DNA of 64,000 nt from an uncultured Chloroflexia bacterium (GCA_963835945.1 CAWIHR010000077.1:6792-70791), one strand, 5' to 3'. Shown: positions 1 to 45,995, counted from the stretch's first letter. Notes: generated by a model not told the origin, from the letters alone. Numbers and translations are program-made.

Positions 1-118
1 TACATGCCAGCGACGAACGACGTGATCGTGACAGCATGTCCGATGCCGTCCCGTCGCGTGCAGTCTCACGCTCAGGATGGCGCCTCGGCAGGGCCTCGAG
101 GGGGATGCAGTCCGACCG

Positions 119-352
119 CTACGCTACCGACTCTGCTACCACATGCCCCCTCAGAGCGAGCAGCTCGGGCGGGAACACGACTGAGCCCGGCCGCCCGTGG
201 CAGCGGCCATCGGCGCGCATAACGGTGGCATAAGCGGCGGTGCAGTCCCGGCAGGGCGAGGCGGCGTGGTAGCGACCTGGGCAATGCTCGTTTGCCGCGA
301 TCCAGGCTGCCAGCTCCCTGGCTGTCAGGCAGGGCCACACGCCGTCGACCAT
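119..352 (-). CDS. hypothetical small Cys-rich protein (77 aa)
   Basis: ATG-to-TAG ORF with strongly G/C-biased third codon positions. Contains CPGRYHAASPCRDC. No family recognised. Confidence 0.45.
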   Translation of the reverse strand: MVDGVWPCLTARELAAWIAANEHCPGRYHAASPCRDCTAAYATVMRADGRCHGRPGSVVFPPELLALRGHVVAESVA

Positions 353-373
353 CGGCTCAAGCGTTGCCGCCCC

Positions 374-547
374 CTAGCGCGCCGGACCCGACTTGGAGGG
401 CGCTGCGGGCGGCGCGGGGACCTTCGGCGCAGCCGTCACAGTGCCCGCGTCAGCCGCTGTCCGCCGATGCTCGCGCTCGTGGGCTCGCAGACGCCTAACG
501 GCCTCCCGCTCGGCCTTACGACGGCTCTCTTTCTGTGGGTTGCTCAT
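374..547 (-). CDS. hypothetical basic protein (57 aa, below ORF-track cutoff)
   Basis: Hand translation gives MSNPQKESRRKAEREAVRRLRAHEREHRRTAADAGTVTAAPKVPAPPAAPSKSGPAR. Its ATG overlaps the stop of the upstream gene (ATGA at 544-547). Confidence 0.4.
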   Translation of the reverse strand: MSNPQKESRRKAEREAVRRLRAHEREHRRTAADAGTVTAAPKVPAPPAAPSKSGPAR

Positions 548-1575
548 CCAGCGCGGGCCAGCCCGTCACACAGGACCCGGCCGTCCTTGCGGACGGTCCC
601 CCACTGATCCGGCGGCCACGCCTTCTGTCGCGCCTCGATGATCCAGCGATCCCAGGCCCCGACGAACTTGGCGCGGGCCATCCAGCCCTGCCTCGTCAGC
701 TCCACGCAGACGGCCACGGCGCCCGGCCAGTCGAAGGCGGGCTCGTCCGACGCCGCCATCTCGGCCTGCGCCCGAGCCTCCTGCTCGGGTGTGAGCAGAC
801 GCAGTCCAGCCGGCGAGCTCGTGCTGGCCTGGGTCTTGCTGGGCCGGTTCCTGCTTGCAAAGACCCCCAGGTGCATCGAGATCCCCCACTTGCGACCCGC
901 CCGGCGGGCGGAGGACGTCGCCGGCTGTCCAGAGTCCCGCGCGGGCGCGGGCTGCTCGGACGTGCTGGACGGCCCGGTAAGGCGGGGATCGGACATGCCT
1001 GCCACGAGACCCTGGTCCTGCAGCTCGGATGCGGGGCCGGGCGGCCGGACGTCCGAATGCCACGCGGGCGCAATCCGATCGGGAAGCAGGCGGTTCACGA
1101 GAAGGGTGTCGTACCTGGAAGACACCCGGCCAGCGGGCGAGTCGTAGGCGATGGTCGCCTCGGTGAGCGGGACCATGACCTCTCGCCGATGGAAGAAGCC
1201 GGCGACCGGGTCGGTGCCGGGAAAGGCGTGCAGGTGGCCGCTGACGTCGTAACGCCGGAGCCGGAGCTCCACCGGGTAGGACCGGGTCCGTAGTCGACGC
1301 CGCGGGTTGCCTTGCGGTCCGGTGACCGCCACGGCATACATCTCCTCGCGCAGGACGACCGCCTCGGGGAGCGCCAGCTCATGGCCATCCTCGAGGCTCT
1401 GCGCGGACAGATCGACGAGGGTGAACTGCTCGGCACTATTCAGCAGATCGGTCACGCGATCGGCCGAGAGCGCCACCCGACCGGAGGCCCGGGAGTCATC
1501 CGCGTAGACCGTCAGCTCGACGAGCGGGTCGGGCGAGAGGTACTTGGCTGCGAGGGACTCGATCGCGGTTGCCAT
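544..1575 (-). CDS. hypothetical protein (343 aa) with C-terminal FDWPGAVAVCV domain
   Basis: The ATG at 1575 is preceded by a GGGGAGA RBS, and the longer ORF-track N-terminus is Arg-rich and unlikely. The C-terminal ~70 aa are paralogous to the 84-aa protein at 3400-3654. Confidence 0.6.
   Translation of the reverse strand: MATAIESLAAKYLSPDPLVELTVYADDSRASGRVALSADRVTDLLNSAEQFTLVDLSAQSLEDGHELALPEAVVLREEMYAVAVTGPQGNPRRRLRTRSYPVELRLRRYDVSGHLHAFPGTDPVAGFFHRREVMVPLTEATIAYDSPAGRVSSRYDTLLVNRLLPDRIAPAWHSDVRPPGPASELQDQGLVAGMSDPRLTGPSSTSEQPAPARDSGQPATSSARRAGRKWGISMHLGVFASRNRPSKTQASTSSPAGLRLLTPEQEARAQAEMAASDEPAFDWPGAVAVCVELTRQGWMARAKFVGAWDRWIIEARQKAWPPDQWGTVRKDGRVLCDGLARAG
736..1112. repeat. 377-bp segment, copy 1 (inside CDS 544-1575), identical to 2260-2636
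   Basis: Base-by-base comparison by eye shows no mismatch. Confidence 0.9.
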
Positions 1576-1859
1576 CTCGTCTCCCCTGCTGGCCGAACGG
1601 ATCACGCCGCCTCTCGGAGCCAGGCCCTGCACCCCGCGGCGACAGCATCGACTGTGCGCCCCGACCCCCCGAGCCCGCAATCGTCAGGACTGCGTAGGCC
1701 CCGATGCTCTCGGCTCGCGGCCGGCACAGCTTCCGCCTAACGCGTTCGCAGCGCCTCCGCCAGCTCCCAGAGCATCTCGGCCTCGGTCCCCCCGCGCGAG
1801 TCCACCGCAAGCCGGGTCGCGAACCGGCGCAGGTGCCCCGCGTAGAACGCCGACGCGGC

Positions 1860-2150
1860 TCAGAGCCGTTCCTCGGAGTGCCACTGCGGGCGGGTGGCCT
1901 CCCAGCCCGGCAGGCGCTCAAGGGCTGCGAGCACGGCTTCCCAAGCCTCGCTCCGTTGGCTCATGGTGTGGGAGCCTAGAACGAACGGACTCGTCGCTGC
2001 ACGCCGCGCGGGCCCCACCGCCCTCGCATCACTGGCGGCACGACTACCGCCGAGAGGGGTGCGGGACGAGGGATGGTCCCGCCTCTGGCCGCTCACGCGA
2101 AGGAGGCCCGCCTCGGCGGGCCTCCCGTTGCCGGGTCTGCCCGATCCCAT
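1860..2150 (-). CDS. hypothetical small protein (start uncertain: 2150 or internal ATG at 1964)
   Basis: ORF-track frame. The C-terminal part reads MSQRSEAWEAVLAALERLPGWEATRPQWHSEERL. An in-frame TGA separates it from a downstream TEAE-type tail. Confidence 0.3.
   Translation of the reverse strand: MGSGRPGNGRPAEAGLLRVSGQRRDHPSSRTPLGGSRAASDARAVGPARRAATSPFVLGSHTMSQRSEAWEAVLAALERLPGWEATRPQWHSEERL
2102..2125 (-). terminator. GC-rich hairpin (11-bp arms GGAGGCCCGCC/GGCGGGCCTCC)
   Basis: Perfect inverted repeat followed by a weak TTCGCG tail on the minus strand. It lies between cassette copy A and the next ORF. Confidence 0.35.
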
Positions 2151-2154
2151 CCCC

Positions 2155-2264
2155 GCGGGTCGGTCTCGTCATTTTCCGGCGGCCGGTGTATGGGCCGCGC
2201 GTCAGAGCCCCCCGCGTAATGGGCCGATTATCCCACCCAGCCTCGATGCCACCCGAACTGGCGG
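2155..2264 (-). promoter_or_regulatory. leader/promoter cassette copy A
   Basis: Minus strand carries TGGGATAAT (2235-2227), a conserved hairpin and GACGAGACCGACCCGC. Differs from copy B by one substitution and a 9-nt indel. Confidence 0.6.
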
Positions 2265-2636
2265 GCTCGTCCGACGCCGCCATCTCGGCCTGCGCCCGAG
2301 CCTCCTGCTCGGGTGTGAGCAGACGCAGTCCAGCCGGCGAGCTCGTGCTGGCCTGGGTCTTGCTGGGCCGGTTCCTGCTTGCAAAGACCCCCAGGTGCAT
2401 CGAGATCCCCCACTTGCGACCCGCCCGGCGGGCGGAGGACGTCGCCGGCTGTCCAGAGTCCCGCGCGGGCGCGGGCTGCTCGGACGTGCTGGACGGCCCG
2501 GTAAGGCGGGGATCGGACATGCCTGCCACGAGACCCTGGTCCTGCAGCTCGGATGCGGGGCCGGGCGGCCGGACGTCCGAATGCCACGCGGGCGCAATCC
2601 GATCGGGAAGCAGGCGGTTCACGAGAAGGGTGTCGT
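2260..2636. repeat. 377-bp segment, copy 2, bracketed by cassette copies A and B
   Basis: Identical to 736-1112. Out of its original gene context, so it represents a gene fragment. Confidence 0.9.
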
Positions 2637-2637
2637 C

Positions 2638-2756
2638 GCGGGTCGGTCTCGTCATTGAGGCGCGGTTCCGGCGGCCGGTGTATGGGCCGCGCGTCAGAGC
2701 CCCCCGCGTAATGGGCCGATTATCCCACCCGGCCTCGATGCCACCCGAACTGGCGG
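2638..2756 (-). promoter_or_regulatory. leader/promoter cassette copy B
   Basis: Same blocks as copy A, with TGGGATAAT at 2727-2719. Confidence 0.6.
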
Positions 2757-2957
2757 CGGATTGGCCGCAGCCACCGAACCGACGCCACCGCCCGCTTGCG
2801 TCGCGGACTCCTGGCGGGCGCGCTCGTACGCTCGCCTCGCCTGCGCCGCCCGCCGTTCCGCCTCCTCCACCTCGACGTGGCGGAGGAGCCACAGGTCCCG
2901 TTCCGCGTCGCGCCAGTCCTCGAGCAGGTCAGCGAGGCGCTGCTCGGGTGTCGACAT
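2694..2957 (-). CDS. hypothetical coiled-coil protein (87 aa)
   Basis: ATG preceded by a GGGGAGGG RBS. Sequence begins MSTPEQRLADLLEDWRDAERDLWLLRHVEVEEAERRAAQARRAYERARQE. The 3' end runs into cassette B. Confidence 0.5.
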   Translation of the reverse strand: MSTPEQRLADLLEDWRDAERDLWLLRHVEVEEAERRAAQARRAYERARQESATQAGGGVGSVAAANPPPVRVASRPGGIIGPLRGGL

Positions 2958-3399
2958 CGCCGCCCTCCCCTGTGGCTTCCTCCGCCCACAAGCGTGCGAA
3001 TAGAGGCCAGCGCCTGCAATAGGTAGCTGGGACTATTGGTGTACGGCGGCACCACTTTCGTACTAGGGGGAGGAGGGCGCGAACGGAGCCCGCCCGTCCG
3101 GGGCGCGGAGCGGGGCCAGGACGGAGGCTGGACGGCGGCGCCTACCCTGCGCTTACGGCCGGCCGTTGTAGGTGCGCGCGAGGGCGGGCCGCCGGCGCGG
3201 GTACTGGCCGGTGGACTTCTTTCCTTTCAGGCCGCGGCGCGGTGCCGCCGCTCGTATCGGCCGTCTGCCGCCAGGGTGCCGACGACAGGCGGAACGGACG
3301 GCCGTGGGTGAGCGGTCCGGCCGCCAGAAGGAGCGACGACAGCCTGGACCGCGGGACGAGGGAGAGGTCAGCGCGACGGTCGCCGCGCCTGCGGCACCG

Positions 3400-3654
3400 T
3401 CAGCGGACGTGGCCGTCCATGCGGAGGGTCTTCCACTCATCCAACGGCAACCGCTTGTGCCGCGCCTCCACGGCCCAGCGATCCCCGGGCCCGACCAGCC
3501 GCGTGTGGGCCAGCCAGCCGCGCTTCGTCAGGGTGACGCAGACGGCCACGGCGCCTGGCCAGTCGAAGGTGGCCACGTCTGACGGTTCGGTCTCTACCTG
3601 CGCCCGCGCCTCCGGTTCGGATGGCGGCGATCGCATCCCAGCAGTCGGGCTCAT
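3400..3654 (-). CDS. hypothetical protein (84 aa), stand-alone FDWPGAVAVCV domain
   Basis: ATG at 3654 is preceded by AAGAGGAGA and the spacer TCGGATCGGC. Paralogous to the C-terminus of CDS 544-1575. About 105 nt downstream of the -10-like box of cassette C. Confidence 0.6.
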   Translation of the reverse strand: MSPTAGMRSPPSEPEARAQVETEPSDVATFDWPGAVAVCVTLTKRGWLAHTRLVGPGDRWAVEARHKRLPLDEWKTLRMDGHVR

Positions 3655-3686
3655 GCCGATCCGATCTCCTCTTGGGACGCGTCCCT

Positions 3687-3811
3687 GCGGGTCGGTCTCG
3701 CCAGCGGCTCGGCGCGGTCCGGGCGGCACGTATGTGGGCCGCGTGTCAGAGCCCCCCGTACGCGTCCATTGTCCCACCGGGGTCGATGCGCCCGACGCGC
3801 TCGGCTCGCGG
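3687..3811 (-). promoter_or_regulatory. leader/promoter cassette copy C
   Basis: Carries TGGGACAAT (3776-3768), the conserved hairpin and GGCGAGACCGACCCGC. Closely related to copy D. Confidence 0.6.
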
Positions 3812-3828
3812 CGGCCAAGGACGGGCAC

Positions 3829-4059
3829 TTACCAGCGCCGCAGCGCCTCCACCAGCTCCCGCAGCGCCTCGGCCTCGGTCATGCCCCGCGGCACGCCTGC
3901 AATCCGTCCAGCAAGGTCGGCGGCACAGGCTCCCTGCGCGTGCTCGACGCTCCCCGGAGTTCGAGGGCGACAGGCAGGGAGCCCAGACCGTGAGAGGTCC
4001 GGGCTCCCCTTGATGCCGGGGCGGCAACCGTCGCGAGGCGGCTCTGTCGGACAAGGCAA
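3829..4059 (-). CDS. small ORF ending ..GVPRGMTEAEALRELVEALRRW (start uncertain); weak HicB/UPF0150-like flavour
   Basis: TTG-initiated ORF in the track. Its tail is paralogous to ..SRGGTEAEMLWELAEALRTR at about 1741-1859. The start overlaps a terminator hairpin, so the true start is probably internal. Confidence 0.25.
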   Translation of the reverse strand: MPCPTEPPRDGCRPGIKGSPDLSRSGLPACRPRTPGSVEHAQGACAADLAGRIAGVPRGMTEAEALRELVEALRRW

Positions 4060-4090
4060 GCCGCCCGGGGTGTTCTCCAGGCGGCTTGCC
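4055..4090 (-). terminator. hairpin terminator candidate after the beta-helix gene
   Basis: Perfect 11-bp arms GGCAAGCCGCC/GGCGGCTTGCC with a 14-nt loop. Sits 22 nt after the stop at 4112 and is followed by TTGT on the minus strand. Confidence 0.5.
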
Positions 4091-4111
4091 AGTTGCAGAA
4101 CGAAGCTCAGG

Positions 4112-5677
4112 TTAAGGATGTAGTCGCGGCAGCTTGAGCCTGCCGATGGAAGAGGCTGGACTCACATTGGGGGTGACGCCGGACGTTGCCGCCGACGTGG
4201 GCGCGGGCGCACACCCGATCACCGTGTTGCCGGTGCCCTGATTGAGGGCCGTGTCGTTGGGACTGGCGCATATCAGGGTGTTCTTGGTTGTGTACGGGTC
4301 GAGGATGTACTGGGCAACCGGGGCAACGCCGATGTAGCTCGGGTCGAGCGCGACGCCGCTGACGTTGTTGCCGAAGATCGAGTTGCCCGTGGCGGGCAGC
4401 CACGCCGGGAGGTTGCCCCACAGGCTGATGGCGTCATACGTCCCGGTCGGTGTCGCGGTGATGGTGTTCCCCGAGATCGTGCTGCCCGTGATGTTGTTGG
4501 CGTCGATCCCCTCTTTGAAGTCACCGCTTGCAAGGCCCAGGACGTAGTTGCCCGGGAGCGAGATCGTGTTGCGCGTGATCGTGGCCGTGAACCACTGGGG
4601 GCCGGGGTTGGGCGGAGAAGGCACGTTCGCGGGATACGCGTCCCAGTCGTACAGCAGCATGCCTGCCATGTAGCAGCCGCAGGTGTCTGTGACGAGGATG
4701 GCATTGTCGTGGATGGAGAACTGCGAGAGGCCGTGCTCCAGGCCCGCGAAGTTCGACGGCTCCACCCACACGCCGATATGGTTTTGCCGAATGGTGCTGG
4801 GGTTGTCCGCGGCGACGGTGTTGTCCGAGACGTCGAAGGTCGAGTTCGCCGCGCCGAGGTCGATGCCGAAGTCGACGTTGTCGATCTGGTTCCCGCTGAT
4901 CGTGACCTGGCTCGACGTGATCGCGCCCGACACGACCACGGCGTCATAGATGGTCTGCACGGAGCTGTTGCGGACCGTGAACGACCCGCTCCGGGGGATG
5001 TACGTCGTGCTCGGGCCTTGTAGGGTGTTCGGGAAGTACCCGTCGAAGACGATCCCTTCGAGGACGTTGAAGCCCGTGCCCAGGATGTTCGTCGGCGAGG
5101 TATCGGGACGGCCAGTCACGCTGACCCGGTCGACCGAGGCGTTGCCGGTGCCGTCAGACGTGAAGCCCATGGCGTAGCCCAGGCCGTTCGTCGGCTGCTC
5201 GCCGAAGATCCAGGTCTTCGCCGCGTGGCCGTTCGTCCAGGGGAAGTCGAGGGAGAGATCGGAGACCTCGACATTGCCGTCGACGAAGGTGATGAGAACG
5301 GACCACCGGCAGTTGGTGAAATTGGGCGCGCATTCACCCTGCGTGAAGAAGTCCGACTCGGTGACGAGCAGATCGGGCAGGGCCGCGATGGTCGTGCGGG
5401 ACTCGCCCATGCCTCGGAACGTCCCCTGGAAGTTGTACTCGACGAGCTGGCTGGTGTGGTAGGTCCCGTCCTGTAACTGGACGGTGCAGCGCGGGCTGCC
5501 GTAGTGCGCGCAGTAGTCCAGGCCTGCCTGGATGGCGGCCGTGTCGTTCGAGTTCGGCCCCAATTGGGGCGGCGGCACCAGATACGTCGAACCGAACGGC
5601 AACGCCATGACGGCCGCCGGTGCCGCCAGCGAGGCGGCCAGCATCCCGGCGGTCAGAAACACGAGGATGCGTCTCAC
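4112..5677 (-). CDS. secreted right-handed parallel beta-helix (pectate-lyase-fold) protein, 521 aa
   Basis: GTG at 5677 follows GGGGAGGGG plus 7 nt. N-terminus MRRILVFLTAGMLAASLAAPAAVMALP looks like a signal peptide. PbH1-like repeats are present (ISGNQIDN, ISGNTITA, IFGNNVSG). GC is lower than in neighbouring genes. Confidence 0.8.
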   Translation of the reverse strand: MRRILVFLTAGMLAASLAAPAAVMALPFGSTYLVPPPQLGPNSNDTAAIQAGLDYCAHYGSPRCTVQLQDGTYHTSQLVEYNFQGTFRGMGESRTTIAALPDLLVTESDFFTQGECAPNFTNCRWSVLITFVDGNVEVSDLSLDFPWTNGHAAKTWIFGEQPTNGLGYAMGFTSDGTGNASVDRVSVTGRPDTSPTNILGTGFNVLEGIVFDGYFPNTLQGPSTTYIPRSGSFTVRNSSVQTIYDAVVVSGAITSSQVTISGNQIDNVDFGIDLGAANSTFDVSDNTVAADNPSTIRQNHIGVWVEPSNFAGLEHGLSQFSIHDNAILVTDTCGCYMAGMLLYDWDAYPANVPSPPNPGPQWFTATITRNTISLPGNYVLGLASGDFKEGIDANNITGSTISGNTITATPTGTYDAISLWGNLPAWLPATGNSIFGNNVSGVALDPSYIGVAPVAQYILDPYTTKNTLICASPNDTALNQGTGNTVIGCAPAPTSAATSGVTPNVSPASSIGRLKLPRLHP

Positions 5678-5706
5678 GATCCGACCCCTCCCCACAGATG
5701 TGATCT

Positions 5707-5802
5707 GCGGGTCGGTCTCGCCAGTGGCTCGGCGCGGTCCCGGCGGCACGTATGTGGGCCGCGTGTCATGGCTCCCCGTATGGGCAGATTGTCCCACCGG
5801 GC
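5707..5802 (-). promoter_or_regulatory. leader/promoter cassette copy D
   Basis: Carries TGGGACAAT (5796-5788), the conserved hairpin (5743-5762) and GGCGAGACCGACCCGC. Directly upstream of the beta-helix gene. Confidence 0.6.
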
Positions 5803-5975
5803 GGAAGCGACTCAGGGGCGCCGTCGGCCTGCCGGGGAGCCGAACACGGGGAGCCCGGACTCCCCGGGCAGGCACCCCGAACATGCCGCCCCCATGCAGA
5901 CGGTGTCAGTGATGAAGGTTACTCAGCAGCCATCTACTGCGGCGCGCATCTCCGGGACCTCACGCGGCCGGCAGG

Positions 5976-6569
5976 TTAGGCGGCAGAGCGGTGGCGCCCG
6001 GCCAGGGGCTCGAGCTTGCCGTCAGGGGTCAGCGTGCCGACCACGGGCGGCGCAGGCGACGGGATGCGGTCTCCGTGGGCGTCATAGACCGGGCCGTGCA
6101 GACTGCCGGCGGCGTAGACGGGCGCGTACCCGGCGATCACGTCCCGCATGGCCCCGCGAAGGTGCGGCAGAGGCGGGGAGTCGTCGGCCCGAGTTGCAGT
6201 CGGCGTCGGTGCCTCGATAAGGGCCGTTAGTGAGTCCGTTTCACGCACGAACTCCGGCGACTTGTCCTCGCAGTGGTCTCCCAGTGCCTGTTCGCCGTAA
6301 GTGGGGTCTATCAGCGTCATGTCGCGCTCCCTGCGGCGGCGTTCGCGCTGCGCCCCCGACCGGCGGGCGCGCTCTTCCGCGCGACGGTCGGCCTCCCGGG
6401 CGCGGGCGATGGTCGCGGCGGCCTCGGTGCCAGCCAAGTGGCCGCATCCCGGCCGGTGCCCCTCGCCCCGGCATCGCTGGCGGGTCTCGTCTCGCCCAAG
6501 ATGCGCGCAACCCTCGCGGTGGCGATCGCCTCGGCATCTTCGGCGCCCGGGTTCGATGATCGGGGTCAC
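5976..6569 (-). CDS. hypothetical protein with tandem Cys/His knuckle repeat (197 aa)
   Basis: ATGA overlap with the upstream gene. Two repeats: CRGDRHREGCAHL and CRGEGHRPGCGHL. Confidence 0.55.
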   Translation of the reverse strand: MTPIIEPGRRRCRGDRHREGCAHLGRDETRQRCRGEGHRPGCGHLAGTEAAATIARAREADRRAEERARRSGAQRERRRRERDMTLIDPTYGEQALGDHCEDKSPEFVRETDSLTALIEAPTPTATRADDSPPLPHLRGAMRDVIAGYAPVYAAGSLHGPVYDAHGDRIPSPAPPVVGTLTPDGKLEPLAGRHRSAA

Positions 6570-6886
6570 GCTCGGCCGCCTTGCGCGAGGCTGTGCGCGG
6601 AGCAGGCGAACCCCCGCAGGCCGTAGGCGCGGACCACGGCGGAGCAGTAGTGGCAGCAGTACCTTTGATCCTTCCGGCCGGGGACGAAGGACGCGGTGCA
6701 GCCGGCGCAGGCACGCGGGCCGTAGTGGACGCGACGGGCAGCGTTGAGGGCGTCACGGTTGCGGGCCCGCCATGCGCGGTTAGCCCCGATCGGGTCAGGC
6801 GGCGAGCAGGTCAGGCAGTACTGGCGGGGCTTGCCGGTCTGCCTCGGACGCTCAAACGCGACGCCACAGGCCGGACAGGTCGTCAT
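6566..6886 (-). CDS. zinc-ribbon protein (106 aa)
   Basis: Begins MTTCPACG and continues with ..YCLTC..CAGC..YCCHYC Cys clusters. The ORF-track N-terminal extension crosses an AT-richer intergenic region and was rejected. Confidence 0.55.
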   Translation of the reverse strand: MTTCPACGVAFERPRQTGKPRQYCLTCSPPDPIGANRAWRARNRDALNAARRVHYGPRACAGCTASFVPGRKDQRYCCHYCSAVVRAYGLRGFACSAHSLAQGGRA

Positions 6887-7001
6887 CGCGGGCCACCGTT
6901 GCTCGCGCAGGGAACGAAAGACTCGCTCGCCGAAAACTGCGTCACGGTCTGGCGCGTTTTCGATTTGCCGCTTTTGGTTTGAACTCGGACGGCCCGCAAC
7001 C

Positions 7002-7469
7002 TCACCGCGCTCGACCTCCCGGCCCGCGGCCGTTGCCGCCAGCCCATGGCCGCTCCGCTTGCAGCTCGCGGAACGCCGCGGCCCGGCTGAGCTCCTGCCG
7101 GAGCGGTGAGCCGTCAGGCAACACGAGCGCCGCGGCGGCGAGCACATCGGCCTTGCCGACCTCTCGGGTGTCCCGCGCGAGCGGCTGCACCTCTTCGAGC
7201 CGGAGCGGCACATACGCGCCAGTCGTGCGGTCGACGTAGCCGTACTGCATCGGCGTGGTCGCCTGCGCGCCCTCGATCTTTGCGACCGTGCGATAGAGCG
7301 CCTCCATGCGGGCCGCGTAGGCATCGGCGACCGGTGCGAGCGCCTCATTGATCGCCGGGCCGATCTTTGCGACGGTGCGCCGCACATCGACCGGCGGCGA
7401 CTGCATCTTCGCGGCGCGACCGCGCAGCATGGCCTCAGCGATGATCCGCTCGGCCCGCTTGCGCTTCAC
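7002..7469 (-). CDS. hypothetical protein (155 aa)
   Basis: GTG at 7469 overlaps the upstream stop (GTGA), with GAGGAGG 7 nt upstream. High GC3. Confidence 0.55.
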   Translation of the reverse strand: MKRKRAERIIAEAMLRGRAAKMQSPPVDVRRTVAKIGPAINEALAPVADAYAARMEALYRTVAKIEGAQATTPMQYGYVDRTTGAYVPLRLEEVQPLARDTREVGKADVLAAAALVLPDGSPLRQELSRAAAFRELQAERPWAGGNGRGPGGRAR

Positions 7470-7900
7470 GGTCGGCCTCCTCGCCACGGGTGATCGCGTC
7501 GAAGCGTCGCGAGGGCAGCGGTCGCACCATCCGCCTGCACGTCATCCGGCGGCGCAGCCTTCGCGACGGTGGGCCCGGGCGCGTTCGTCCTCGCCTTCAC
7601 GATCCGGCCCCCGGAGCGCCATGGTGTCTCACTCTGCAGGATGCCCAGCGCGCTCGACACTCCACCGTCAGGCGCACTCTTTGCGACGGTCGGAGCCGCC
7701 CCGCCGAACACGGCCGGAGCCGCGTCGGTGGAGAGAGCCGAGCGAGCCTTCTGAACCTGCGCCCGCGCCTTTCGGATGAGCGCCAGGCGGGCAGTGCGAG
7801 TCGGCGTCGGCGGCTTCGAGCTGAGGATGCCCTCGGCCTCGCTGAGCGCCGCTGCCGCGCGGTCAAGTGCAGCGAGCTTCGTCTCGCCCGGCGTGGTCAT
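7466..7900 (-). CDS. hypothetical protein (144 aa) with internal repeat
   Basis: Packed 2 nt after the upstream stop. Repeats PTVAK(S/A)APxxxV...PWRxGG. Confidence 0.55.
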   Translation of the reverse strand: MTTPGETKLAALDRAAAALSEAEGILSSKPPTPTRTARLALIRKARAQVQKARSALSTDAAPAVFGGAAPTVAKSAPDGGVSSALGILQSETPWRSGGRIVKARTNAPGPTVAKAAPPDDVQADGATAALATLRRDHPWRGGRP

Positions 7901-7902
7901 CG

Positions 7903-8151
7903 TCAGACGCCCCCGCCGGGCGTGCTTGTCAGCGAGACGAACAGCGGCGTTACGCTGGCGCCCGCGCTGTGCGAGGTCGCCTCGGAACCATTTGCCCCGC
8001 GATCGACAAACAAGGGGTTATCGGGCCGGGTGGTGATCTTCATGACCTCGGCATCGACCTCGACGGCGAACGTCCCGGCGGGCAGTCCGTCGCCCGCGAG
8101 CACAATGGGATCGGAATCGCGGAAGATGTTTTCGGCGAGCGTGGTAGCCAT
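7903..8151 (-). CDS. hypothetical protein (82 aa) with phage tail-fibre-like RG-x2-G-x2-A-x2-H-x2-G motif
   Basis: ATG follows GAGAGAGAAGGA. The segment FVDRGANGSEATSHSAGASV resembles a motif I recall from actinophage minor tail proteins (memory only). Confidence 0.5.
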   Translation of the reverse strand: MATTLAENIFRDSDPIVLAGDGLPAGTFAVEVDAEVMKITTRPDNPLFVDRGANGSEATSHSAGASVTPLFVSLTSTPGGGV

Positions 8152-8168
8152 GTTCGGGTCCTTCTCTC

Positions 8169-8828
8169 TCAGTAGCCGTCGGGCGGGAAAATGAACAGCC
8201 TCGGGATGGCGAGGCAGGGGATGCGCGCCACGTCCCAGCGCAGATCGGCCGCCATCGGGTCGAGCCGCCCTACCGTCTGCGCCGCCTGCGGGTTCCTGTC
8301 GAAGTCGGCGGCGCCCTTGGCGAGCTCGTGGAACTCCTGGCCGAGCAGGGCTCGGCGGTTGAGCACCTCGACCAGCGGGGCGAGCAGGCGGTCGATTTCT
8401 GCGTCGGACGCCTCGGCCTCGGCCATGAGCTCGGCGGCTTTCGTCCGCATCTCGGCCGCGGTGCGCGCCATCACGGCGGCCCCGTGGGACCGTTGCGCGG
8501 CCGCCTGCTCGGCGGTCAGGACGGCCTCCTGTTCGCGCAGTTCGGCCAGGGCGTCGGATACTGCGCGGTGCCGCTCGAGCAGGGCCGCGGTGCTCGAGGG
8601 CTTCGCCTCGCCCCGCACGACGGCCAGACGGTTTCGGGTGAGGGCCTCGACGGCATCGGCGAGGGCGGCCTCCGCGGCGGCGATCTCGGCCCGGAGCAGC
8701 TCGGCCCGCTGGCGCCAGGTGTCGAGCTCGGCCCACCGCGCCTCCGCCTCGGCCGTGGCAGCGGCCAGCGCCTCGGCGAGTGGATCGGGCACGCTGGCAG
8801 CGGGCGGGACCTCAGACACTAGGACCAT
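8169..8828 (-). CDS. Ala/Glu-rich coiled-coil protein (219 aa)
   Basis: Internal ATG at 8828 is preceded by GAAGAGGGGAA. Long heptad-like AEAxxAL stretches. Confidence 0.6.
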   Translation of the reverse strand: MVLVSEVPPAASVPDPLAEALAAATAEAEARWAELDTWRQRAELLRAEIAAAEAALADAVEALTRNRLAVVRGEAKPSSTAALLERHRAVSDALAELREQEAVLTAEQAAAQRSHGAAVMARTAAEMRTKAAELMAEAEASDAEIDRLLAPLVEVLNRRALLGQEFHELAKGAADFDRNPQAAQTVGRLDPMAADLRWDVARIPCLAIPRLFIFPPDGY

Positions 8829-9590
8829 GGCGGGTTCCCCTCTTCGGATGGCGATAGGGCGTGGAGTGGCGGCGGCGCGAGTGATGGGCCGGCCACAGGC
8901 TGGGCGGCCGGGTGCCAGCCCGACAGCTCGGGCACCAGGCCAACATGCGGGGACCGAGGGGCTGGTGGCAGCGGTCGCACAGGCCGAGCCCGAAGGGCTC
9001 GAGCGGCGGGACGGGAACGGCAGGCCCTCGGTCATCTCGCGGTTTCTGCCATCCCCGGCGGGATGCACGGTCACGACGTAAACCTGTTGCTGCACATCCC
9101 GCGAGAGCGGCGGGAGCGCGCGCGGACTCCGGCCGTCGGCGCTGGCGTCCGGCTGTGGGCCGACGCCAGCTACCGGGAAACTGGGGCGGAACGGCGTCGC
9201 GGGACCGGCCTGATCGTCGTTTATCCCGTGCCGTTCACCATGCCAGGCCTCCGCATAGAGGTCGCGCGGTTGGTCGTTCATTGCTTGCTCCAATCCGGTT
9301 GGTATGGCGGCTCGTTGGTATGGCGGCTCGGCGGTGATCCCGCGCGCCGCCAGGTGGGCGACGATGGTCCGCGCCATCTCGTCAAACTTTGCCCGGCTGA
9401 GATACGGCCGGGCGAGCTCGAGGAACGTCAGGGCGGCGATCAGCCGCACGGTCTCGCGAGCACCGGCGGATCGATCGCCGGCGTCGAGGCCTGCCCCGCC
9501 GGGTCGGTCGTCCCCCGGCCGGATCGATCCCTCGAGCTCCACCGGCAGGAAAGGAAGCTGTCGGTAGGTCCCGGGACAAGCCTTATCCAT
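8812..9590 (-). CDS. hypothetical protein with C-terminal zinc ribbon, reading frame shifts near 9030-9060
   Basis: The 5' part is in the frame of ORF 8169-9590 (MDKACPGTYRQLPF...). The 3' part in another frame, ..PLEPFGLGLCDRCHQPLGPRMLAWCPSCRAG.., has much higher GC3 and ends at a TGA at 8812. Confidence 0.45.
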
Positions 9591-10017
9591 CGAGAGCCTC
9601 GGCGTAGCGTGCGGCGAAGGCGGGCGAGACGCGCAGCGCGCCCTCTGCGGCCGAGAGACGCTGGCGGCACAGGCCGAGCCGCGCGGCGAGCTGCGCCTGT
9701 GTCAGGCCCGCTCGCCGGCGGGCGGCGCGCAGGTCCGGGCCGGTGGTATCCATCGCGGATAGCGTCGCGCTCGGCTCGGCGTCCGGACAGGGGTCGAAAG
9801 ACGGCCCCCCTGCTATAGCGGCGATGGCGGCGACGGCCTGCACGAGCGCGTCCACGGAAAGTCGCTCGCGTGCCGCGGCGGCGTGACGCGCGACGGTTCG
9901 CTGGCGGATGCCGAGCTCATGGGCGACGGCCTTGGTGCCTCCGAGTCGGCCATAGGTGATCAGCACCTCTCGTTGCCTCGGCGTCAGGCTGTCGAGCGGC
10001 CCCGGGACGCCGGTCAC
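9583..10017 (-). CDS. dual HTH DNA-binding regulator (LuxR/sigma-r4-like plus XRE-like)
   Basis: GTGA overlap with the upstream gene. LTPRQREVLITYGRLGGTKAVAHELGIRQRTVARH is followed by LRAARRRAGLTQAQLAARLGLCRQRLSAAE. Confidence 0.65.
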   Translation of the reverse strand: MTGVPGPLDSLTPRQREVLITYGRLGGTKAVAHELGIRQRTVARHAAAARERLSVDALVQAVAAIAAIAGGPSFDPCPDAEPSATLSAMDTTGPDLRAARRRAGLTQAQLAARLGLCRQRLSAAEGALRVSPAFAARYAEALDG

Positions 10018-10259
10018 GGCAGGAGCCTCGGCGGGGCGACGGCGGACAGGAACGCGGACCGCTCGGCATCGCTCGGCTCGACTAGCAGGGCGATCGCGTC
10101 GGCCGCATGTCCGCCAGGCGAGACGGCAGGCAGGCATTGCGGGTTAGCGCCGGCCCGGCAGGCGTAGCGGGGCGGGCGGTCCGGACGGACGCGCGACAGG
10201 ATGACGAGCAGGTCCCGCGGCTCCGGGTTGCCGCACGAGTAGCAGGCCGGCACCTTCAT
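10014..10259 (-). CDS. hypothetical Cys-containing protein (81 aa)
   Basis: ATGA overlap with the upstream ORF. Very high GC3. Begins MKVPACYSCGNPEPRD. Confidence 0.5.
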   Translation of the reverse strand: MKVPACYSCGNPEPRDLLVILSRVRPDRPPRYACRAGANPQCLPAVSPGGHAADAIALLVEPSDAERSAFLSAVAPPRLLP

Positions 10260-10441
10260 GCCACCGGCCTCCGGTCGGTCGGCTTGGGCAAACGGGAGCG
10301 GTGGACGTAGACCGGCACTCCGGTCGCGAGGTCGCGATGTGTCAGGAGCGGGCGGCACCAGCACCACGGCGAGGCTGAGTGGTCACGCCCCGGCAGTTCG
10401 ATAGGCGCAGCATGGATCGGGAGCGGTGGGCGGGTACTCAT
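10256..10441 (-). CDS. hypothetical protein (61 aa)
   Basis: First ORF after the repeat-rich intergenic region. Translationally coupled to the next gene. Confidence 0.45.
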   Translation of the reverse strand: MSTRPPLPIHAAPIELPGRDHSASPWCWCRPLLTHRDLATGVPVYVHRSRLPKPTDRRPVA

Positions 10442-10453
10442 CTCTGAGGCCCT

Positions 10454-10570
10454 GCATTGCGTTTCGGGTGCGCAATGCCGGCGGCTCTCTCTTCGTAGAA
10501 GAGAGCCGTCATTGCGTCTCCCGCAATGCGCTCATTGCGCTGGCGTTGCGTTCCATTGCGCTCGTTGCGC
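10454..10570. repeat. array of CATTGCG/CGCAATG 7-8-mers (iteron- or operator-like)
   Basis: IR GCATTGCG-N9-CGCAATGC (10454-10478). IR CGGCTCTCT..AGAGAGCCG (10482-10508). IR CATTGCG-N5-CGCAATG (10510-10528). Tandem CATTGCGCT(G)GCGTTGCG appears twice (10533-10570). Confidence 0.7.
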
Positions 10571-10604
10571 TGGGCGGTCGGCAGGACCGTGCGCGGTGCG
10601 CGTC

Positions 10605-11549
10605 TTACCGGTCACTGACGGCCACCCATCGATGGTCAGGCATCTTGAGGAAGCGCCCCGACCTGCTGCCCTGGCTGAGGTAGGCCCGCACCACGTTCGC
10701 GGCCATGCCGGTGCCATCGACGATGTCCGAGGCGTCGCTGCGCCCATGCTCCGTGAAGAACCGCTCGACGCGGTCGATGCCGCGCATGGCGGCCGCGACA
10801 AGCTCGGGCGTCGCGATCTCTTCGCGCGCGACCCGGATCATGCGCGGCGGCTCGTGCCCATCGAACTCGAGGCGGATGCCGACTGGCGCGACCGGCGCCC
10901 CGTTTGTCTTGGTACAGATCAGGGCCAGATGCAGGAAGCCGTCGGCGCCAGCTGACTCACGCCGCAGGGCGAACACACGCCGCGAGTCGTTCATCTTGTA
11001 GATCGAGCCGTATGGTTTCGCGGCCGGACGCTCCGACTCGACGTCGGCACCGGCCACGTGGTCCAGCAGGACGGCCGAGCAGTGGAGCTCGCGCAGTGCC
11101 ATGAACATCCGCTTAGTCGTCTCTTCGGCGGATCCGCCCTCGGTCGTCTGCCCCAGCGCGCCGCCGACCGCGTCGACGATCACCATCACGACGTCGCGCT
11201 CTTGCACGAAACTCGCGATCTCTTCGACCTGGTCGGCGAGCGGCCGCATCCCGCAGTGTCGGTACGCGATGTCGGGTGCCTCGATCCCAGCGCCGGCGGC
11301 GATCGCCGCAATGAGCGCGTTCCACGTGTCGAGGTCGTTCTCCCAGTCGAGCACGAGCACGCCGCCCTGTCGCGGCTCGAGTCCTGGGACGATTGCCACT
11401 CCCGCCGCGACGCTCACCGCGAACACGGCGCCGAGGATTGTCTTGCCGGTGCCGCCCGGGCCGTGGATGGTGATCGGTAAGACGTCGGGCACAACGCCGG
11501 CGATGCGGTAGACGAGTTCACGCGCGGCGACCGGCCGGCGGCCGACCAT
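10605..11549 (-). CDS. RepA-like RecA-fold P-loop ATPase (AAA_25-type)
   Basis: Walker A motif ITIHGPGGTGKT and Walker B-like VMVIVDAVG. This architecture is typical of replication/primase-helicase ATPases of actinobacterial integrative elements. Confidence 0.8.
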   Translation of the reverse strand: MVGRRPVAARELVYRIAGVVPDVLPITIHGPGGTGKTILGAVFAVSVAAGVAIVPGLEPRQGGVLVLDWENDLDTWNALIAAIAAGAGIEAPDIAYRHCGMRPLADQVEEIASFVQERDVVMVIVDAVGGALGQTTEGGSAEETTKRMFMALRELHCSAVLLDHVAGADVESERPAAKPYGSIYKMNDSRRVFALRRESAGADGFLHLALICTKTNGAPVAPVGIRLEFDGHEPPRMIRVAREEIATPELVAAAMRGIDRVERFFTEHGRSDASDIVDGTGMAANVVRAYLSQGSRSGRFLKMPDHRWVAVSDR

Positions 11550-12112
11550 CTCGAACGGCTCTGCCTGCTCGCGGGCCCGGATGACCGCGAGGCTGGCCCA
11601 CTCGAGCAGATCGCGCCAGGGCGACTGTCCCGCCCGTCTTCTCTGCGAGCAGCTTCGCTCGGGCCGCCCGTGCGCTCGAGCTCGTCAGGTCCAGCGTGCC
11701 GTGGTCGACGTGCTGATCCCGGTGGCGTACGACGAGGTAGGCTGCGGCACTCGCCGCGGCTCCAGCGCAGCCGGCTGATCTCGAGCTCGCTCGGGTCCGC
11801 CATGACGAGGAAGCCGAGCCCCTGTCGCACGAGCAGCGGCTCCCCGGTGCGGAGTGAGCGGTCTAGTGCAGCGGCTTCTTCGGGCGGTAAGTCGGGCGGG
11901 CGCGGGATGCTCTCGACGTCCGCCAGGACGGGCGGCGGCTCGGCCATGACTTGGTCCCGGTACGCGATCGCCTGCGCCCGGTGCCGGAGCTGCACCTGCT
12001 CGGCCGTGAACTCCTCGAGGGCCAGCCCGTCGTCCTCGTCAGCCTCGGGCGGCGGTATCGGGGCGACGATCCACGCTCCGTCGTCGGCGGGCATCGGCTC
12101 GGCCCCGTTCAT
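11550..12112 (-). pseudogene. probable N-terminal region of the RepA-like protein, split over three frames
   Basis: Frame 1 reads MNGAEPMPADD...SELEISRLRWS. Frame 2 reads AAASAAAYLVVRHRDQHVDHGTLDLTSSSARAARAKLLAEKTGG. Frame 3 reads QSPWRDLLEWASLAVIRAREQAEPFEMVGRR and runs into the ATPase ORF. Confidence 0.4.
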
Positions 12113-12342
12113 TGCGGCCCCCACCACGGGCGGAACCCGGCGGCCAGCATCCGTCGAGTGAACGCGGAGCCACGGACTCGGCGAAACGGGATCACGTTTG
12201 CCGGCGCCGGGGCAGGCTTCGGCGGTTGTGGAGTAGCGGGCGGGCGCGAGCCCCTGCTAGCATCTCGGCGGGAGTCTGAGGTACGCACAGAGACGGACTC
12301 CTCCGGGCCGGGTGCAGTCGAGGCGCCCGGTCCGTCTATTCA

Positions 12343-12360
12343 GGGCGGGCGTTCCCGCCC
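12343..12360 (-). terminator. short GC hairpin GGGCGGG-CGTT-CCCGCCC after the excisionase-like gene
   Basis: Perfect 7-bp stem 15 nt downstream of the stop at 12375. No U-tract. Confidence 0.3.
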
Positions 12361-12374
12361 CCGAGTGAGGGAGT

Positions 12375-12695
12375 TCAGGCGGCCGCATGAGGCGCCGCCT
12401 TCGACGGGTGCCGGCGGCCGGCCGGAGCGGGCGCAGTGGCGAGCCTCTCAACCTCCGAAGATGGGATCAGTCGGCGCCCGCCTACCGTCACGCTCTGCAC
12501 GGTGCCGGCGGCCATGAGGCTGTAGAGCGTCGAGCGGGACATACCGCCCAGCCGCTCCGCGGCGCGCTTCACGTCTAGCAGCTCGACGGGTGCGGGGCGT
12601 GCCGCGTCGGCCGATCGCTCGGCGGCGACGGCCAGCACGGCCGCGACGAGCTCGCGGGTAGCGACCTCGAGCCGGGCCTCGGCGGGCGTGGTCAC
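12375..12695 (-). CDS. xis: excisionase-family (MerR-like) HTH DNA-binding protein
   Basis: GTG at 12695 overlaps the RHH stop (GTGA). LLDVKRAAERLGGMSRSTLYSLMAAGTVQSVTVGGRRLIPSSEVERL matches the excisionase-type HTH pattern. Confidence 0.7.
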   Translation of the reverse strand: MTTPAEARLEVATRELVAAVLAVAAERSADAARPAPVELLDVKRAAERLGGMSRSTLYSLMAAGTVQSVTVGGRRLIPSSEVERLATAPAPAGRRHPSKAAPHAAA

Positions 12696-12886
12696 GGCCG
12701 CGGCTCCGGCGAGGGCGTAGCCGGAGGAACGGCGGACGATCGCCCGCGCGCGCGCTCGGCTCTCTCGAGCCCGTCCAGGATCAGCCTGGCGGCCTGGGCC
12801 CGCGGGTCGCGGAGCTCGCACCGCGCGAGGGCGATCAGTCGATCGACAGCGCTGGCCGGGAGCTCGACGCGTACCCAACGGTTCAC
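12692..12886 (-). CDS. ribbon-helix-helix (CopG-like) protein
   Basis: VRVELPASAVDRLIALARCELRDPRAQAARLILDGLERAE fits a beta-strand plus two helices. Coupled to xis. Confidence 0.6.
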   Translation of the reverse strand: MNRWVRVELPASAVDRLIALARCELRDPRAQAARLILDGLERAERARGRSSAVPPATPSPEPRP

Positions 12887-12965
12887 GAGTCGAGTGTGCG
12901 GCGGGTCAGCCTGACAGAGACTGACTCCGCCCGGACAAGTAGCCTGACAAATGACGCGAAGGCGA

Positions 12966-13499
12966 TCAGTCGAAGCGGGGCGGCCAGCCCGGGATGCGGA
13001 GGTCGTCCTGTGCGCGCTTCAGCGTCCGCCCGCTGTAACTCGGCCAGCCCATCTCTTCGTTGAGGATGCCTGCCACTACGTCCCGACTGTAGCGCGGGCC
13101 GTGGCTCTTCTTTGCACGCGAGCATCCCTCTTGGAGCATCGCTCGGGTCAGGCTCCGGGCAACCTGTGGCGCGTCAGGGTCCGGGGATAGCTCGGCGGAT
13201 GCGCTGAGGGTTCGCTCGGTGAGGCTCCCCCGGACGTACTCCGCGATCGCGTGGCGATCCCGAAGGCTCTCCGTCGGCGCCAGGCTGATGCCGTAGCTCT
13301 TGAGGTCCATGCGGACGCGCCCGGCCATCCTGGCGATTTCGTCGACGATCTCCTCTTCGCTCCACCCCTCGGCGACGCCTTGCGCGATCATCCCCGCCCG
13401 TGCCCCCTCGAGCATCCGGCCAGCGGCCCGCGTAAGGCCGTCTAGGTCGCGAGCCTCTAGCGGAGCGGCCCCCTTCGTGTTGCCATCCTCGCCGCTCAC
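12966..13499 (-). CDS. hypothetical protein (177 aa), translationally coupled to integrase
   Basis: Its start overlaps the integrase stop by 4 nt. No family recognised. Confidence 0.6.
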   Translation of the reverse strand: MSGEDGNTKGAAPLEARDLDGLTRAAGRMLEGARAGMIAQGVAEGWSEEEIVDEIARMAGRVRMDLKSYGISLAPTESLRDRHAIAEYVRGSLTERTLSASAELSPDPDAPQVARSLTRAMLQEGCSRAKKSHGPRYSRDVVAGILNEEMGWPSYSGRTLKRAQDDLRIPGWPPRFD

Positions 13500-14653
13500 G
13501 ACGCACCCCCGAGCGCCCGCTCGATCGCATTCGCGGCCTCGCGCTTCTGTGCCCGGTCCATGTGCGCGTACACGTCGGCGGTTATCGCGATCGTGCTATG
13601 TCCGAGAGCATCGGAGACGAGCTTGAGAGGGACTCCCTGCGCGAGCATGAGAGACGCGACGCCGTGCCGAAGATCGTGGAACCGGACGCGAGGCAGGCCG
13701 AGCCGTGCCAGCGTCGCGTGGAACTCCCGGTCTACCGTCCAAGAACGCAACGAGCGGCCCAGTGCGTCAGTGAACACGAGCCCGTCGCGATCCTGCCACA
13801 GCTCCCCGGCGGCGAGCCGTTGCGCGGCCTGGCGGGCTCGTTGACGCCGGAGCGCCCGGACGGTGGTAGGTCCGAGCTCGAGGGTGCGCCGGCTGCGCGG
13901 TGTCTTCGTCTCGGCCAGCCCCCAACCGCCCCCGCGGATGCGGGCCATGCTGTGCCGGACGGTGAGCGTTGGTGCCGGCCCCTCGAGCTCCACGTCGGCC
14001 CATGTCAGGCCGAGTACCTCCCCCTGCCGGAGCCCGGTGGTCGCGGCCACGGCGAAGAGCGGGGCGAGGTCCCCGTCGTCCTCGAGCAGGGCCCGCGTCT
14101 CCTCAGCGGTCAGGACGTGCATCTCGCGGCGCGCGACGGCCGGAGGACGCGACAATGCCGCGACATTGCGAACAATGAGCTCGTCTCGCTGGGCGTCGCC
14201 GAGAGCGCGGCGCAGCGTCCCGCGGATGCCACGCGCCGTCACGCCGGAGCGCCCGCGCGACAGGACCGTGGTCATTAGGCGATCCACGTCCGAGGGTCGC
14301 AGGTCCGCCAGGGGAATATGGCCGAGCTCCGGGATCAACCAGTCCCGGCAGTGCTGCGCCCGGGCCCGCCAGCTCGCGGAGCGCACCCGGCCCTCCTCGG
14401 CTGCCAGCCATCCGGCCAGGTAGTCCGCGACCGTCGTCCGCGCGGTCGGGCGTCCCGTGTCCTCAAGCCGGCGCCGCAGATCGCGCAGTCGCTCCCGCAC
14501 GATCGCTTGCGACTGGCCGGAGACGACGTGCCGGGTATGCCGCCCGTCGGCGTCAACCGCGACGATGGCACCCCGCCATCGGCCGTCGGCAGTGTGGTAG
14601 ATGCTCCCCTCGCCTCTTGGGCGGCGGCGTCGGGGGGTGGTAGTCTCGTTCAT
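13496..14653 (-). CDS. int: tyrosine-type site-specific integrase
   Basis: 385 aa. Has an N-terminal SAM-like domain. Catalytic pattern is R (GLRQGEVLGL), HDLRH, and Y in ADVYAHM. Confidence 0.95.
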   Translation of the reverse strand: MNETTTPRRRRPRGEGSIYHTADGRWRGAIVAVDADGRHTRHVVSGQSQAIVRERLRDLRRRLEDTGRPTARTTVADYLAGWLAAEEGRVRSASWRARAQHCRDWLIPELGHIPLADLRPSDVDRLMTTVLSRGRSGVTARGIRGTLRRALGDAQRDELIVRNVAALSRPPAVARREMHVLTAEETRALLEDDGDLAPLFAVAATTGLRQGEVLGLTWADVELEGPAPTLTVRHSMARIRGGGWGLAETKTPRSRRTLELGPTTVRALRRQRARQAAQRLAAGELWQDRDGLVFTDALGRSLRSWTVDREFHATLARLGLPRVRFHDLRHGVASLMLAQGVPLKLVSDALGHSTIAITADVYAHMDRAQKREAANAIERALGGAS

Positions 14654-14747
14654 GGTGCCGACCTCCGCAACAGGTCTGTGCGCCGGGACCCTCGGACCGT
14701 TCGCGCGGCCGGGGGTCCGTCCTTGTCCGGCTATGCTACCGGATGCA

Positions 14748-44630: not shown

Positions 44631-44651
44631 AACCCTGCCCTCCTGTGCCCG

Positions 44652-45992: not shown

Positions 45993-45995
45993 CCG

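Follow-up and report, generated by a model that had tools for sequence, protein, structure and literature searches.

Candidate translational riboswitches of the c-di-GMP-II-GAG class ahead of two genes of an integrative element in an uncultured Chloroflexia bacterium

Riboswitches of the canonical c-di-GMP-II class (RF01786) are validated sensors of cyclic di-GMP (c-di-GMP) (PMC9481103, PMC10043782) and often stand ahead of genes for surface or anchor proteins (PMC9481103). In the related case of the GEMM (c-di-GMP-I) riboswitches, the cyclic AMP-GMP (c-AMP-GMP) 'snuggler' variants differ by a small number of binding-pocket changes that redirect the aptamer to another signalling nucleotide, and they control a different mix of genes (PMC7266159). 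Here we describe four related repeats, A to D, in a stretch of 64,000 nucleotides (nt) from an uncultured Chloroflexia bacterium (GCA_963835945.1 CAWIHR010000077.1:6792-70791; hereafter the window), and compare them with the c-di-GMP-II-GAG class (RF03169), which has long been in Rfam and whose biology is essentially undescribed. Searchable literature names no ligand for this variant, and the papers found there give the family name only. Weinberg and colleagues, in PNAS in 2017, reportedly presented c-di-GMP-II-GAG as one variant class, and are said to have proposed that c-di-GMP-II variants may sense different signalling molecules. The adenines that contact the ligand in canonical c-di-GMP-II sit, we presume, where the variant carries GAG. 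Our reading, which we regard as quite probable from the sequence, is that C and D are complete riboswitch-type leaders with a translational ON switch, and that A and B are decayed copies.

The four repeats lie in direct orientation on the minus strand at 2155-2264 (A), 2638-2756 (B), 3687-3811 (C) and 5707-5802 (D). The original prediction had placed them there from the sequence alone, and they were recovered both by comparison of the window with itself and by a covariance model built from Chloroflexota relatives (the clade model). That prediction had held the class to be unassignable by eye; a known class does exist, and a search against Rfam found it. With the RF03169 model, which has 86 positions and a gathering score of 40 bits, D (5785-5701, 58.3 bits, E 5.7e-9) and C (3765-3681, 56.2 bits) scored well, B (2713-2632, 42.9 bits) scored slightly over the gathering score, and A (2221-2149, 27.5 bits) fell under it. 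The matches of D, C and B run end to end over model positions 1-86. For all four copies RF03169 was the top family of clan CL00127, six weaker overlapping clan matches having been dropped, and canonical c-di-GMP-II was the best clan family for none of them.

Further tests of family membership rank the copies in the same order. Of the 53 alignment columns with 90% conservation or more among 111 relatives, D deviates at 0, C at 1, B at 7 and A at 15. The invariant block ...CGAGACCGACC is found in each of the four, and the 'GAG' nucleotides would map to GCGAGACC. When the clade model was run across all 64 kb with filters off, D reached 85.2 bits, C 81.8, B 63.4 and A 37.1; the next-best match had 16 bits, and no aptamer copy beyond these four was found. 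The repeats are thus very probably c-di-GMP-II-GAG riboswitch aptamers. As they pass the tests of score, helices and leader position, C and D are taken as members of RF03169, and they are fresh members of a known ligand-orphan class.

Relatives were retrieved by a pattern scan of a species-representative genome collection, with a pattern that fixed many positions, including the 3' strand of the pseudoknot, and that gave at least 119 loci. Among the matches listed, at least about 115-131 are true members, nearly all of them in Chloroflexota metagenome-assembled genomes labelled Limnocylindria, Limnocylindrales or 'Chloroflexia', mostly from soil. A few short contigs carry bin labels of other phyla. 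As consensus, the family has GCGGGAGGCUnUGACGCGCGGCCCAnACnCCGGCCGCCGGGACCGCGCCGAGCCACUGGCGAGACCGACCCGC. Clusters of three to five copies per 8 kb are common (e.g. L191, L221, L231, L203 and L159), so that four copies in 3.6 kb are normal for the lineage, and degenerate copies scoring 30-55 bits with the clade model are present in other loci too. The island cassette of the original prediction is, instead, a lineage-wide family, whose copies across genomes are ~85-95% identical. C and D themselves share 90% identity over 97 nt in the self-comparison (3685-3781 vs 5705-5801); since copies from different genomes are just as close to them (~85-95%), their likeness is best read as constraint on the RNA and not as recent island-specific duplication.

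Other possible sources of relatives were set aside. Matches in Streptomyces, Nocardioides and Spirillospora are without the family P3 and P2 blocks (P1 to P3 being the paired helices of the aptamer); they look like chance and are apparently coding, and they were rejected as members. A viral origin was likewise rejected, as a megablast of 1-14800 against phage records was empty and two strict pattern scans of IMG/VR viral contigs gave chance matches only.

In both intact leaders, a promoter-like box, the aptamer, a Shine-Dalgarno (SD) sequence and a start codon follow one another at short distances:

5788..5796, minus strand: extended -10-like box of D, TGGGACAAT, with the hexamer GACAAT at 5793-5788 ending 11 nt before GGRNGC
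5701..5785, minus strand: aptamer of D, intact; P1 pairs 5778-5775 with 5711-5708, and the 3' strand CCGACCC lies at 5715-5709
5675..5707, minus strand: expression platform of D, with hairpin CAGAUCACAUCUG (5707-5695), SD GGGGAGGGG (5693-5685) and GTG start (5677-5675)
4112..5677, minus strand: gene after D, 521 amino acids, with a signal-peptide-like N-terminus (VRRILVFLTAGMLAASLAAPAAVMA) and right-handed beta-helix / NosD-like repeats
3768..3776, minus strand: extended -10-like box of C, TGGGACAAT, assigned from its sequence and the family spacing
3681..3765, minus strand: aptamer of C, intact (RF03169 56.2 bits; clade model 81.8)
3652..3686, minus strand: expression platform of C, with hairpin GGGACGCGUCCC (3686-3675) bearing the family GCGUCCC linker motif, SD AAGAGGAG (3673-3666), and, at its end, spacer GAUCGGAUCGG followed by ATG (3654-3652)
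3400..3654, minus strand: gene after C, 84 amino acids, with a paralogue of 75% DNA identity in the 3' end of the open reading frame (ORF) 544-1575

The 521-amino-acid protein matches Pfam NosD (2.5e-6) and Beta_helix (2.7e-5), and the 84-amino-acid protein has no Pfam or PHROG match.

The geometry of these leaders is that of the family. The GACAAT and GATAAT hexamers of the window have a TG two bases upstream and stand 11 nt from the aptamer, which is also the modal hexamer-aptamer distance among relatives. A hexamer of the form xAxxxT ends 6-18 nt upstream of GGRNGC in 117 of 129 members, as against 41 of 129 shuffled sequences, and 11-13 nt upstream in 88 members; downstream, an ORF starts on the same strand in 121 of 131 members, mostly 21-32 nt off (all counts among the matches listed). 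The box GGTGGGAnAAT is also present in 14 relatives. Because the -10-like box stands at a fixed distance, transcription would start 1-3 nt before P1, at a predicted ~5781 in D and ~3761 in C. From aptamer to start codon there are 32 nt in D and 35 nt in C. The proposal of a cis-regulatory 5'-leader RNA behind an extended -10 box is therefore well borne out by the full-length match to a riboswitch family, by the -10-like hexamers of relatives and by start codons 21-32 nt on; the distances to ATG 3654 and GTG 5677, the SDs and the UCGGAUC spacer that had been pointed out are all present in the sequence. Neither intrinsic terminators nor canonical sigma-70 promoters were found in 1500-6100.

Further upstream, 35 of 129 members carry a box GTTCGCCTCTCGCCAGA, followed ~17 nt on by cTACGGTg, at ~35-50 nt upstream of the aptamer; the loci concerned include L159, L161, L170, L182, L188, L221, L227, L232, L254, L267 and L268. 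Another box, GGCACTTG, is common to another 17 members. These upstream boxes may serve a dedicated sigma factor as -35 elements, or they may be sites for a regulator that adds a further layer of control to the riboswitch.

The Rfam-derived fold, with P1, P2, P3 and a pseudoknot, is supported by pair counts in the alignment of relatives. Overall, 84% of cells are paired, as against 29-41% when the partners are slid, and by helix the paired cells amount to 70% in P1, 96% in P2 and 87% in P3. Ten pairs are changed on both sides, five of these in P3, and L241 swaps three consecutive distal P3 pairs. D and C each have 1-3 non-canonical pairs under the clade model. For the pseudoknot, the pairing tested was that of the P3 loop (..GGYCGCC) with the 3' strand (GGCG-AGA-CCG); the P3 loop of D and C is GUGCCGCC, of which only the CGCC:GGCG half pairs cleanly.

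Since start codons follow close behind the aptamer and no terminators were found in 1500-6100, cis-regulation is likely to act at the level of translation. We postulate that transcription, driven by an extended -10 promoter, begins 1-3 nt ahead of P1, and that the first ~75 nt would then fold into the P1-P2-P3-pseudoknot aptamer, with the SD and start codon within ~30 nt after it. Without ligand, the invariant aptamer 3' strand GAGACCGACCCGC, which supplies the 3' sides of both the pseudoknot and P1, would pair with the ribosome-binding site (RBS) and block initiation, and in D this blocking duplex would be CCGACCC:GGGUCGG. Ligand would capture the 3' strand in P1 and the pseudoknot, thereby freeing the RBS and turning translation ON. 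The putative ligand would be a small molecule, most likely a nucleotide-derived second messenger related to c-di-GMP.

Several features of the leaders are consistent with such a switch. In D, GGGUCGG at 5687-5681 overlaps the SD and is perfectly complementary to the aptamer's CCGACCC at 5715-5709, and the duplex between RBS and 3' strand has a free energy of -17.9 kcal/mol. Across the family, RBS windows (-16 to +3) pair with GAGACCGACCCGC at a mean of -10.0 kcal/mol, compared with -8.1 kcal/mol for 583 control SD-plus-start windows of the same loci (Mann-Whitney p 1.8e-7), and RBS pairing is not enriched for four other aptamer strands. When the aptamer is enforced, SD accessibility goes up in 36 of 99 leaders and down in 5 of 99. 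An ON switch is favoured on account of this complementarity and of the accessibility result, and we would put the ON direction at about an even chance.

A number of observations weigh against the scheme, both as to fold and as to switching. P1 is supported for ~5 bp only, its inner pairs. Pseudoknot cells are 88-99% paired with no compensatory changes, and the 3' strand was itself fixed by the retrieval pattern. Covariation is thin overall, the relatives being highly conserved and many of their positions fixed by that pattern. De novo, RNAalifold gives a different nested fold (covariation term -0.22), and single-sequence folding energies are no better than those of shuffles (z 0.16 for D and 1.76 for C). 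As regards switching, the complementarity between RBS and 3' strand is a modest population shift, and the duplex of C, at -10.8 kcal/mol, is ordinary. In a shuffle-based test the SD was without a clear partner, and the start codons of relatives were called heuristically. Lastly, there is the role of the frequent GCGUCCC motif of the linker, the GUCCC of which occurs in 53 of 128 family linkers. Thermodynamics alone being insufficient, as the z-scores and RNAalifold indicate, the fold rests on the curated model and the pair counts.

The RNAalifold fold pairs alignment columns 13-15/94-96, 29-33/51-55, 64-66/86-88 and 70-71/81-82; it is equally conserved, and it excludes P3 and the pseudoknot. 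It could be a ligand-free conformer, or G+C-rich noise.

The rival that survives best keeps the same RNA class and reverses its logic: a GCGUCCC...GGGAC linker hairpin would wrap the SD if the aptamer is folded, and not otherwise, so that ligand would turn the gene OFF. GUCCC stands directly 5' of the SD in the 53 of 128 leaders just mentioned and can pair in several of them (L160, L192, L206) with GGGAC or GGACG just past the SD, and the weak pairing preference between linker and aptamer strands (z -0.5 to -0.7) would suit competition. A downstream partner for GUCCC is, however, not general in the family, SD accessibility goes up more often than down under an enforced aptamer, and the enriched complementarity between RBS and 3' strand suits the ON model. 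We therefore think OFF logic rather unlikely.

Less probable still is a leader that binds a protein or an RNA acting in trans, that is, a structured operator or attenuator that resembles a riboswitch family. The extreme primary-sequence constraint at the 53 conserved columns would also suit a protein site, and the searchable literature, as noted, names no ligand for the GAG variant. On the other side stand the full-length covariance match, within the same Rfam clan as the validated c-di-GMP-II aptamer, and the position of the aptamer at the 5' end of the transcript ahead of the RBSs of many unrelated genes, which is the classic riboswitch pattern. Of the shared RNA or protein-binding leader first suggested, the RNA part stands, and nothing was found in favour of the protein-binding one.

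That the repeats are duplicated coding remnants, a mobile repeat like a miniature inverted-repeat transposable element (MITE), or island recombination sites is very improbable: long ORFs do run through all four copies, the length of the A/B indel is divisible by 3, and the duplicated segment with its 5-nt microhomology is bordered by A and B, but the frames differ (A/B ..GWDNRPITRG.. vs C/D ..PVGQ..DTRPTYVPP..), which rules out a coding-sequence remnant, at least about 130 relatives elsewhere, outside this island, are intergenic leaders of unrelated genes with fixed orientation and distance to the start codon, and the repeats have neither terminal inverted repeats nor opposite-orientation copies.

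If C and D are translational riboswitch leaders, they would belong to a large regulon. Among the matches listed, the aptamer precedes more than 100 genes in uncultured soil Chloroflexota, many of them for exported proteins. Pfam was run on 101 downstream ORFs, and counts were given for the 25 commonest of the 64 matched families, the others having at most ~2 ORFs each. SRPBCC / polyketide-cyclase-like proteins come first with 13 of the 101, followed by methyltransferases and SnoaL-like proteins (6 each), Kelch and collagen-repeat proteins (4 each), and beta-helix / NosD proteins and ABC transporter ATPases (3 each). A signal-peptide- or transmembrane-like N-terminus is found in 54% of downstream proteins vs 17% of control ORFs (p 1e-14). 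We infer that the class governs a large, mixed gene set in its host lineage, in which signal-peptide-like proteins are over-represented. Large, disparate gene sets are typical of riboswitches for signalling molecules (compare GEMM; PMC7266159).

The D and C genes sit in an integrative element that encodes a tyrosine integrase (13496-14653), regulators of the HTH_17 and Xre/LuxR types, and an AAA_25 ATPase; no virion genes were found in this element. It is flanked by housekeeping genes that include cdaA, cdaR, glmM and glmS. These four form a conserved cluster on the minus strand at 42804-48196, with cdaA (DAC + CdaA_N) at 47252-48196, cdaR/YbbR at 45996-47369, glmM at 44652-45992 and glmS at 42804-44630. 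The cdaA cluster indicates that the host makes cyclic di-AMP (c-di-AMP), which is thus one candidate for the ligand. It is tempting to speculate that the GAG variant senses a signalling nucleotide other than c-di-GMP, that in Limnocylindria-type Chloroflexota it is a global switch with dozens of genes per genome, many of them for exported proteins, and that island cargo, a secreted beta-helix protein and an 84-amino-acid protein, has been plugged into this host signal by ON riboswitches, so that a mobile element would be eavesdropping on an uncharacterised second messenger; we offer this only tentatively, as a possibility that we think may well prove wrong.

At the integrase end of the element, 11684-14676 is 99.67% identical to a 2,992-nt contig (L271) of public run ERR10755942 (Logan), which suggests that this element, or that of a closely related strain, has been sequenced elsewhere. 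The window has ~70% G+C, and no tRNA genes were found in it. In the gap downstream of gene C, 3229-3253 on the minus strand matches Rfam Ms_IGR-4, a Mycobacterium small RNA, at 24.3 bits vs a gathering score of 55, most likely by chance.

The remaining copies, and what lies around them, differ from C and D:

2632..2727, minus strand: copy B, with -10-like box TGGGATAAT (2727-2719) and a degenerate aptamer (2713-2632; clade model 63.4 bits)
2260..2636, minus strand: segment X, which separates B from A and repeats 736-1112, from the interior of ORF 544-1575, exactly over 377 nt
2149..2235, minus strand: copy A, with -10-like box TGGGATAAT (2235-2227) and a broken aptamer (2221-2149; clade model 37.1 bits)
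1600..1727, minus strand: vestige where a fifth leader would lie, its flanks homologous to sequence upstream of C

A and B are 99% identical over 91 nt (2174-2264 vs 2666-2756), and the 9-nt indel between them that had been noted agrees with repeat spacings of 483 vs 492. Both score below the 70-99 bits of intact members with the clade model. B has lost the 3' strand of P2 and carries A in place of G62 (in P3) and of G88 (in the pseudoknot strand); A shows losses of the B type, and the 9-nt deletion has taken away the 3' strand of P3 as well. The sequence blocks said to be shared by the copies are present as described, except that CCGCGCC is absent from A, being the 9-nt deletion. The cassette had also been described as preceding cargo genes, which holds for the intact leaders C and D; A and B are degenerate, and no RBS stands at the family distance after either in the sequence. 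Of the decayed fifth copy placed near 1600-1727 only the flanks align, and it was rejected as an aptamer, as neither Rfam at E<=10 nor the clade model detected it.

The 377-nt duplication of 736-1112 at 2260-2636 had been missed in the original prediction. The order is cassette B, segment X, cassette A, with B running straight into X, A running into unrelated sequence, and a 5-nt overlap, CCGCC, at the X/A junction. Segment X covers the 3' end of a conserved gene and the start of the gene C paralogue. Because an exact 377-nt copy lies between them and no RBS lies behind them, we read A and B as rearrangement debris: decayed and probably non-functional duplicates, which would have arisen as a copied 377-nt fragment came to lie between two cassettes. 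We take the B-X-A order to stem, perhaps recently, from duplication or template switching mediated by microhomology; it may also be an artefact of assembly.

ORF 544-1575 (minus strand, 343 amino acids) resembles a fusion or the product of read-through. Homologues, in L266 (62% identity) and L170 (56%), cover its first ~190 amino acids only; its last 84 amino acids are the gene C paralogue, for which an internal start may lie near 876. A small gene on the minus strand at 1741-1963 has an in-frame TGA (1861-1859), and its C-terminal part (..EAEMLWELAEALRTR) has a paralogue in the C-terminal part (..EAEALRELVEALRRW) of 3829-4059, a gene that lies upstream of riboswitch C. Regions 573-824 and 3405-3656 form a repeat of 75% identity. 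Together, this repeat and the shared C-termini point to an old duplication of a gene-leader-gene module.

What may be new here, for a class known mainly by name, is the large set of Chloroflexota members, the fixed promoter and RBS geometry, the occurrence in an integrative island, a testable ON model, and the recognition of A, B and the 'fifth copy' as decay products. The window offers two minimal natural constructs, 5796-5675 and 3776-3652, each with promoter, aptamer and RBS, for which B and A would be natural loss-of-function controls. The role of the aptamer 3' strand as an anti-SD sequence makes for a concrete and falsifiable switching model. The regulon, in a soil lineage that is abundant but uncultured, would comprise small proteins, over half of them with signal-peptide-like N-termini, as well as SRPBCC, SnoaL and methyltransferase proteins. 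A new signalling molecule as ligand would open up the signalling network of this lineage. If the ligand is c-di-GMP, the family would merely be a divergent c-di-GMP-II lineage, and the finding routine annotation.

Among known systems, the start-associated sequences (SAS), extended SAS (ESAS) and stoperators of actinobacteriophages are repeated motifs of 13-17 bp related to proteins or ribosomes. Like the present repeats, they are conserved non-coding sequences upstream of several starts in a mobile element; the comparison was rejected, as the repeats here are a structured RNA of ~85 nt that matches a riboswitch model and the strict IMG/VR pattern drew a blank. The 'snugglers' offer a precedent for retargeting of a cyclic-dinucleotide aptamer, with the difference that they have the class I fold and an established ligand.

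Canonical c-di-GMP-II belongs to the same clan (CL00127) and has a pseudoknotted three-helix aptamer; the crystallised Clostridium c-di-GMP-II RNA presumably shares the ...ACCGACC 3' strand with the copies of the window. Its hosts are Firmicutes, in contrast to the high-GC Chloroflexota here, and its platform is a terminator or a group I ribozyme, whereas that of C and D is apparently translational. With the ligand-contacting adenines replaced by or expanded to GAG, as we take them to be, a change of specificity would be expected. The closest system is c-di-GMP-II-GAG itself. The P1 of the window copies has ~5 bp, compared with 11 in the RF03169 model, the outer model pairs being mismatched, and B is a marginal match and A lies under the threshold. 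P1, P2, P3 and the GGCGAGACCGACC 3' block are present, the RNA is a 5' leader on the same strand as its ORF, and nothing in C and D contradicts their membership of the class.

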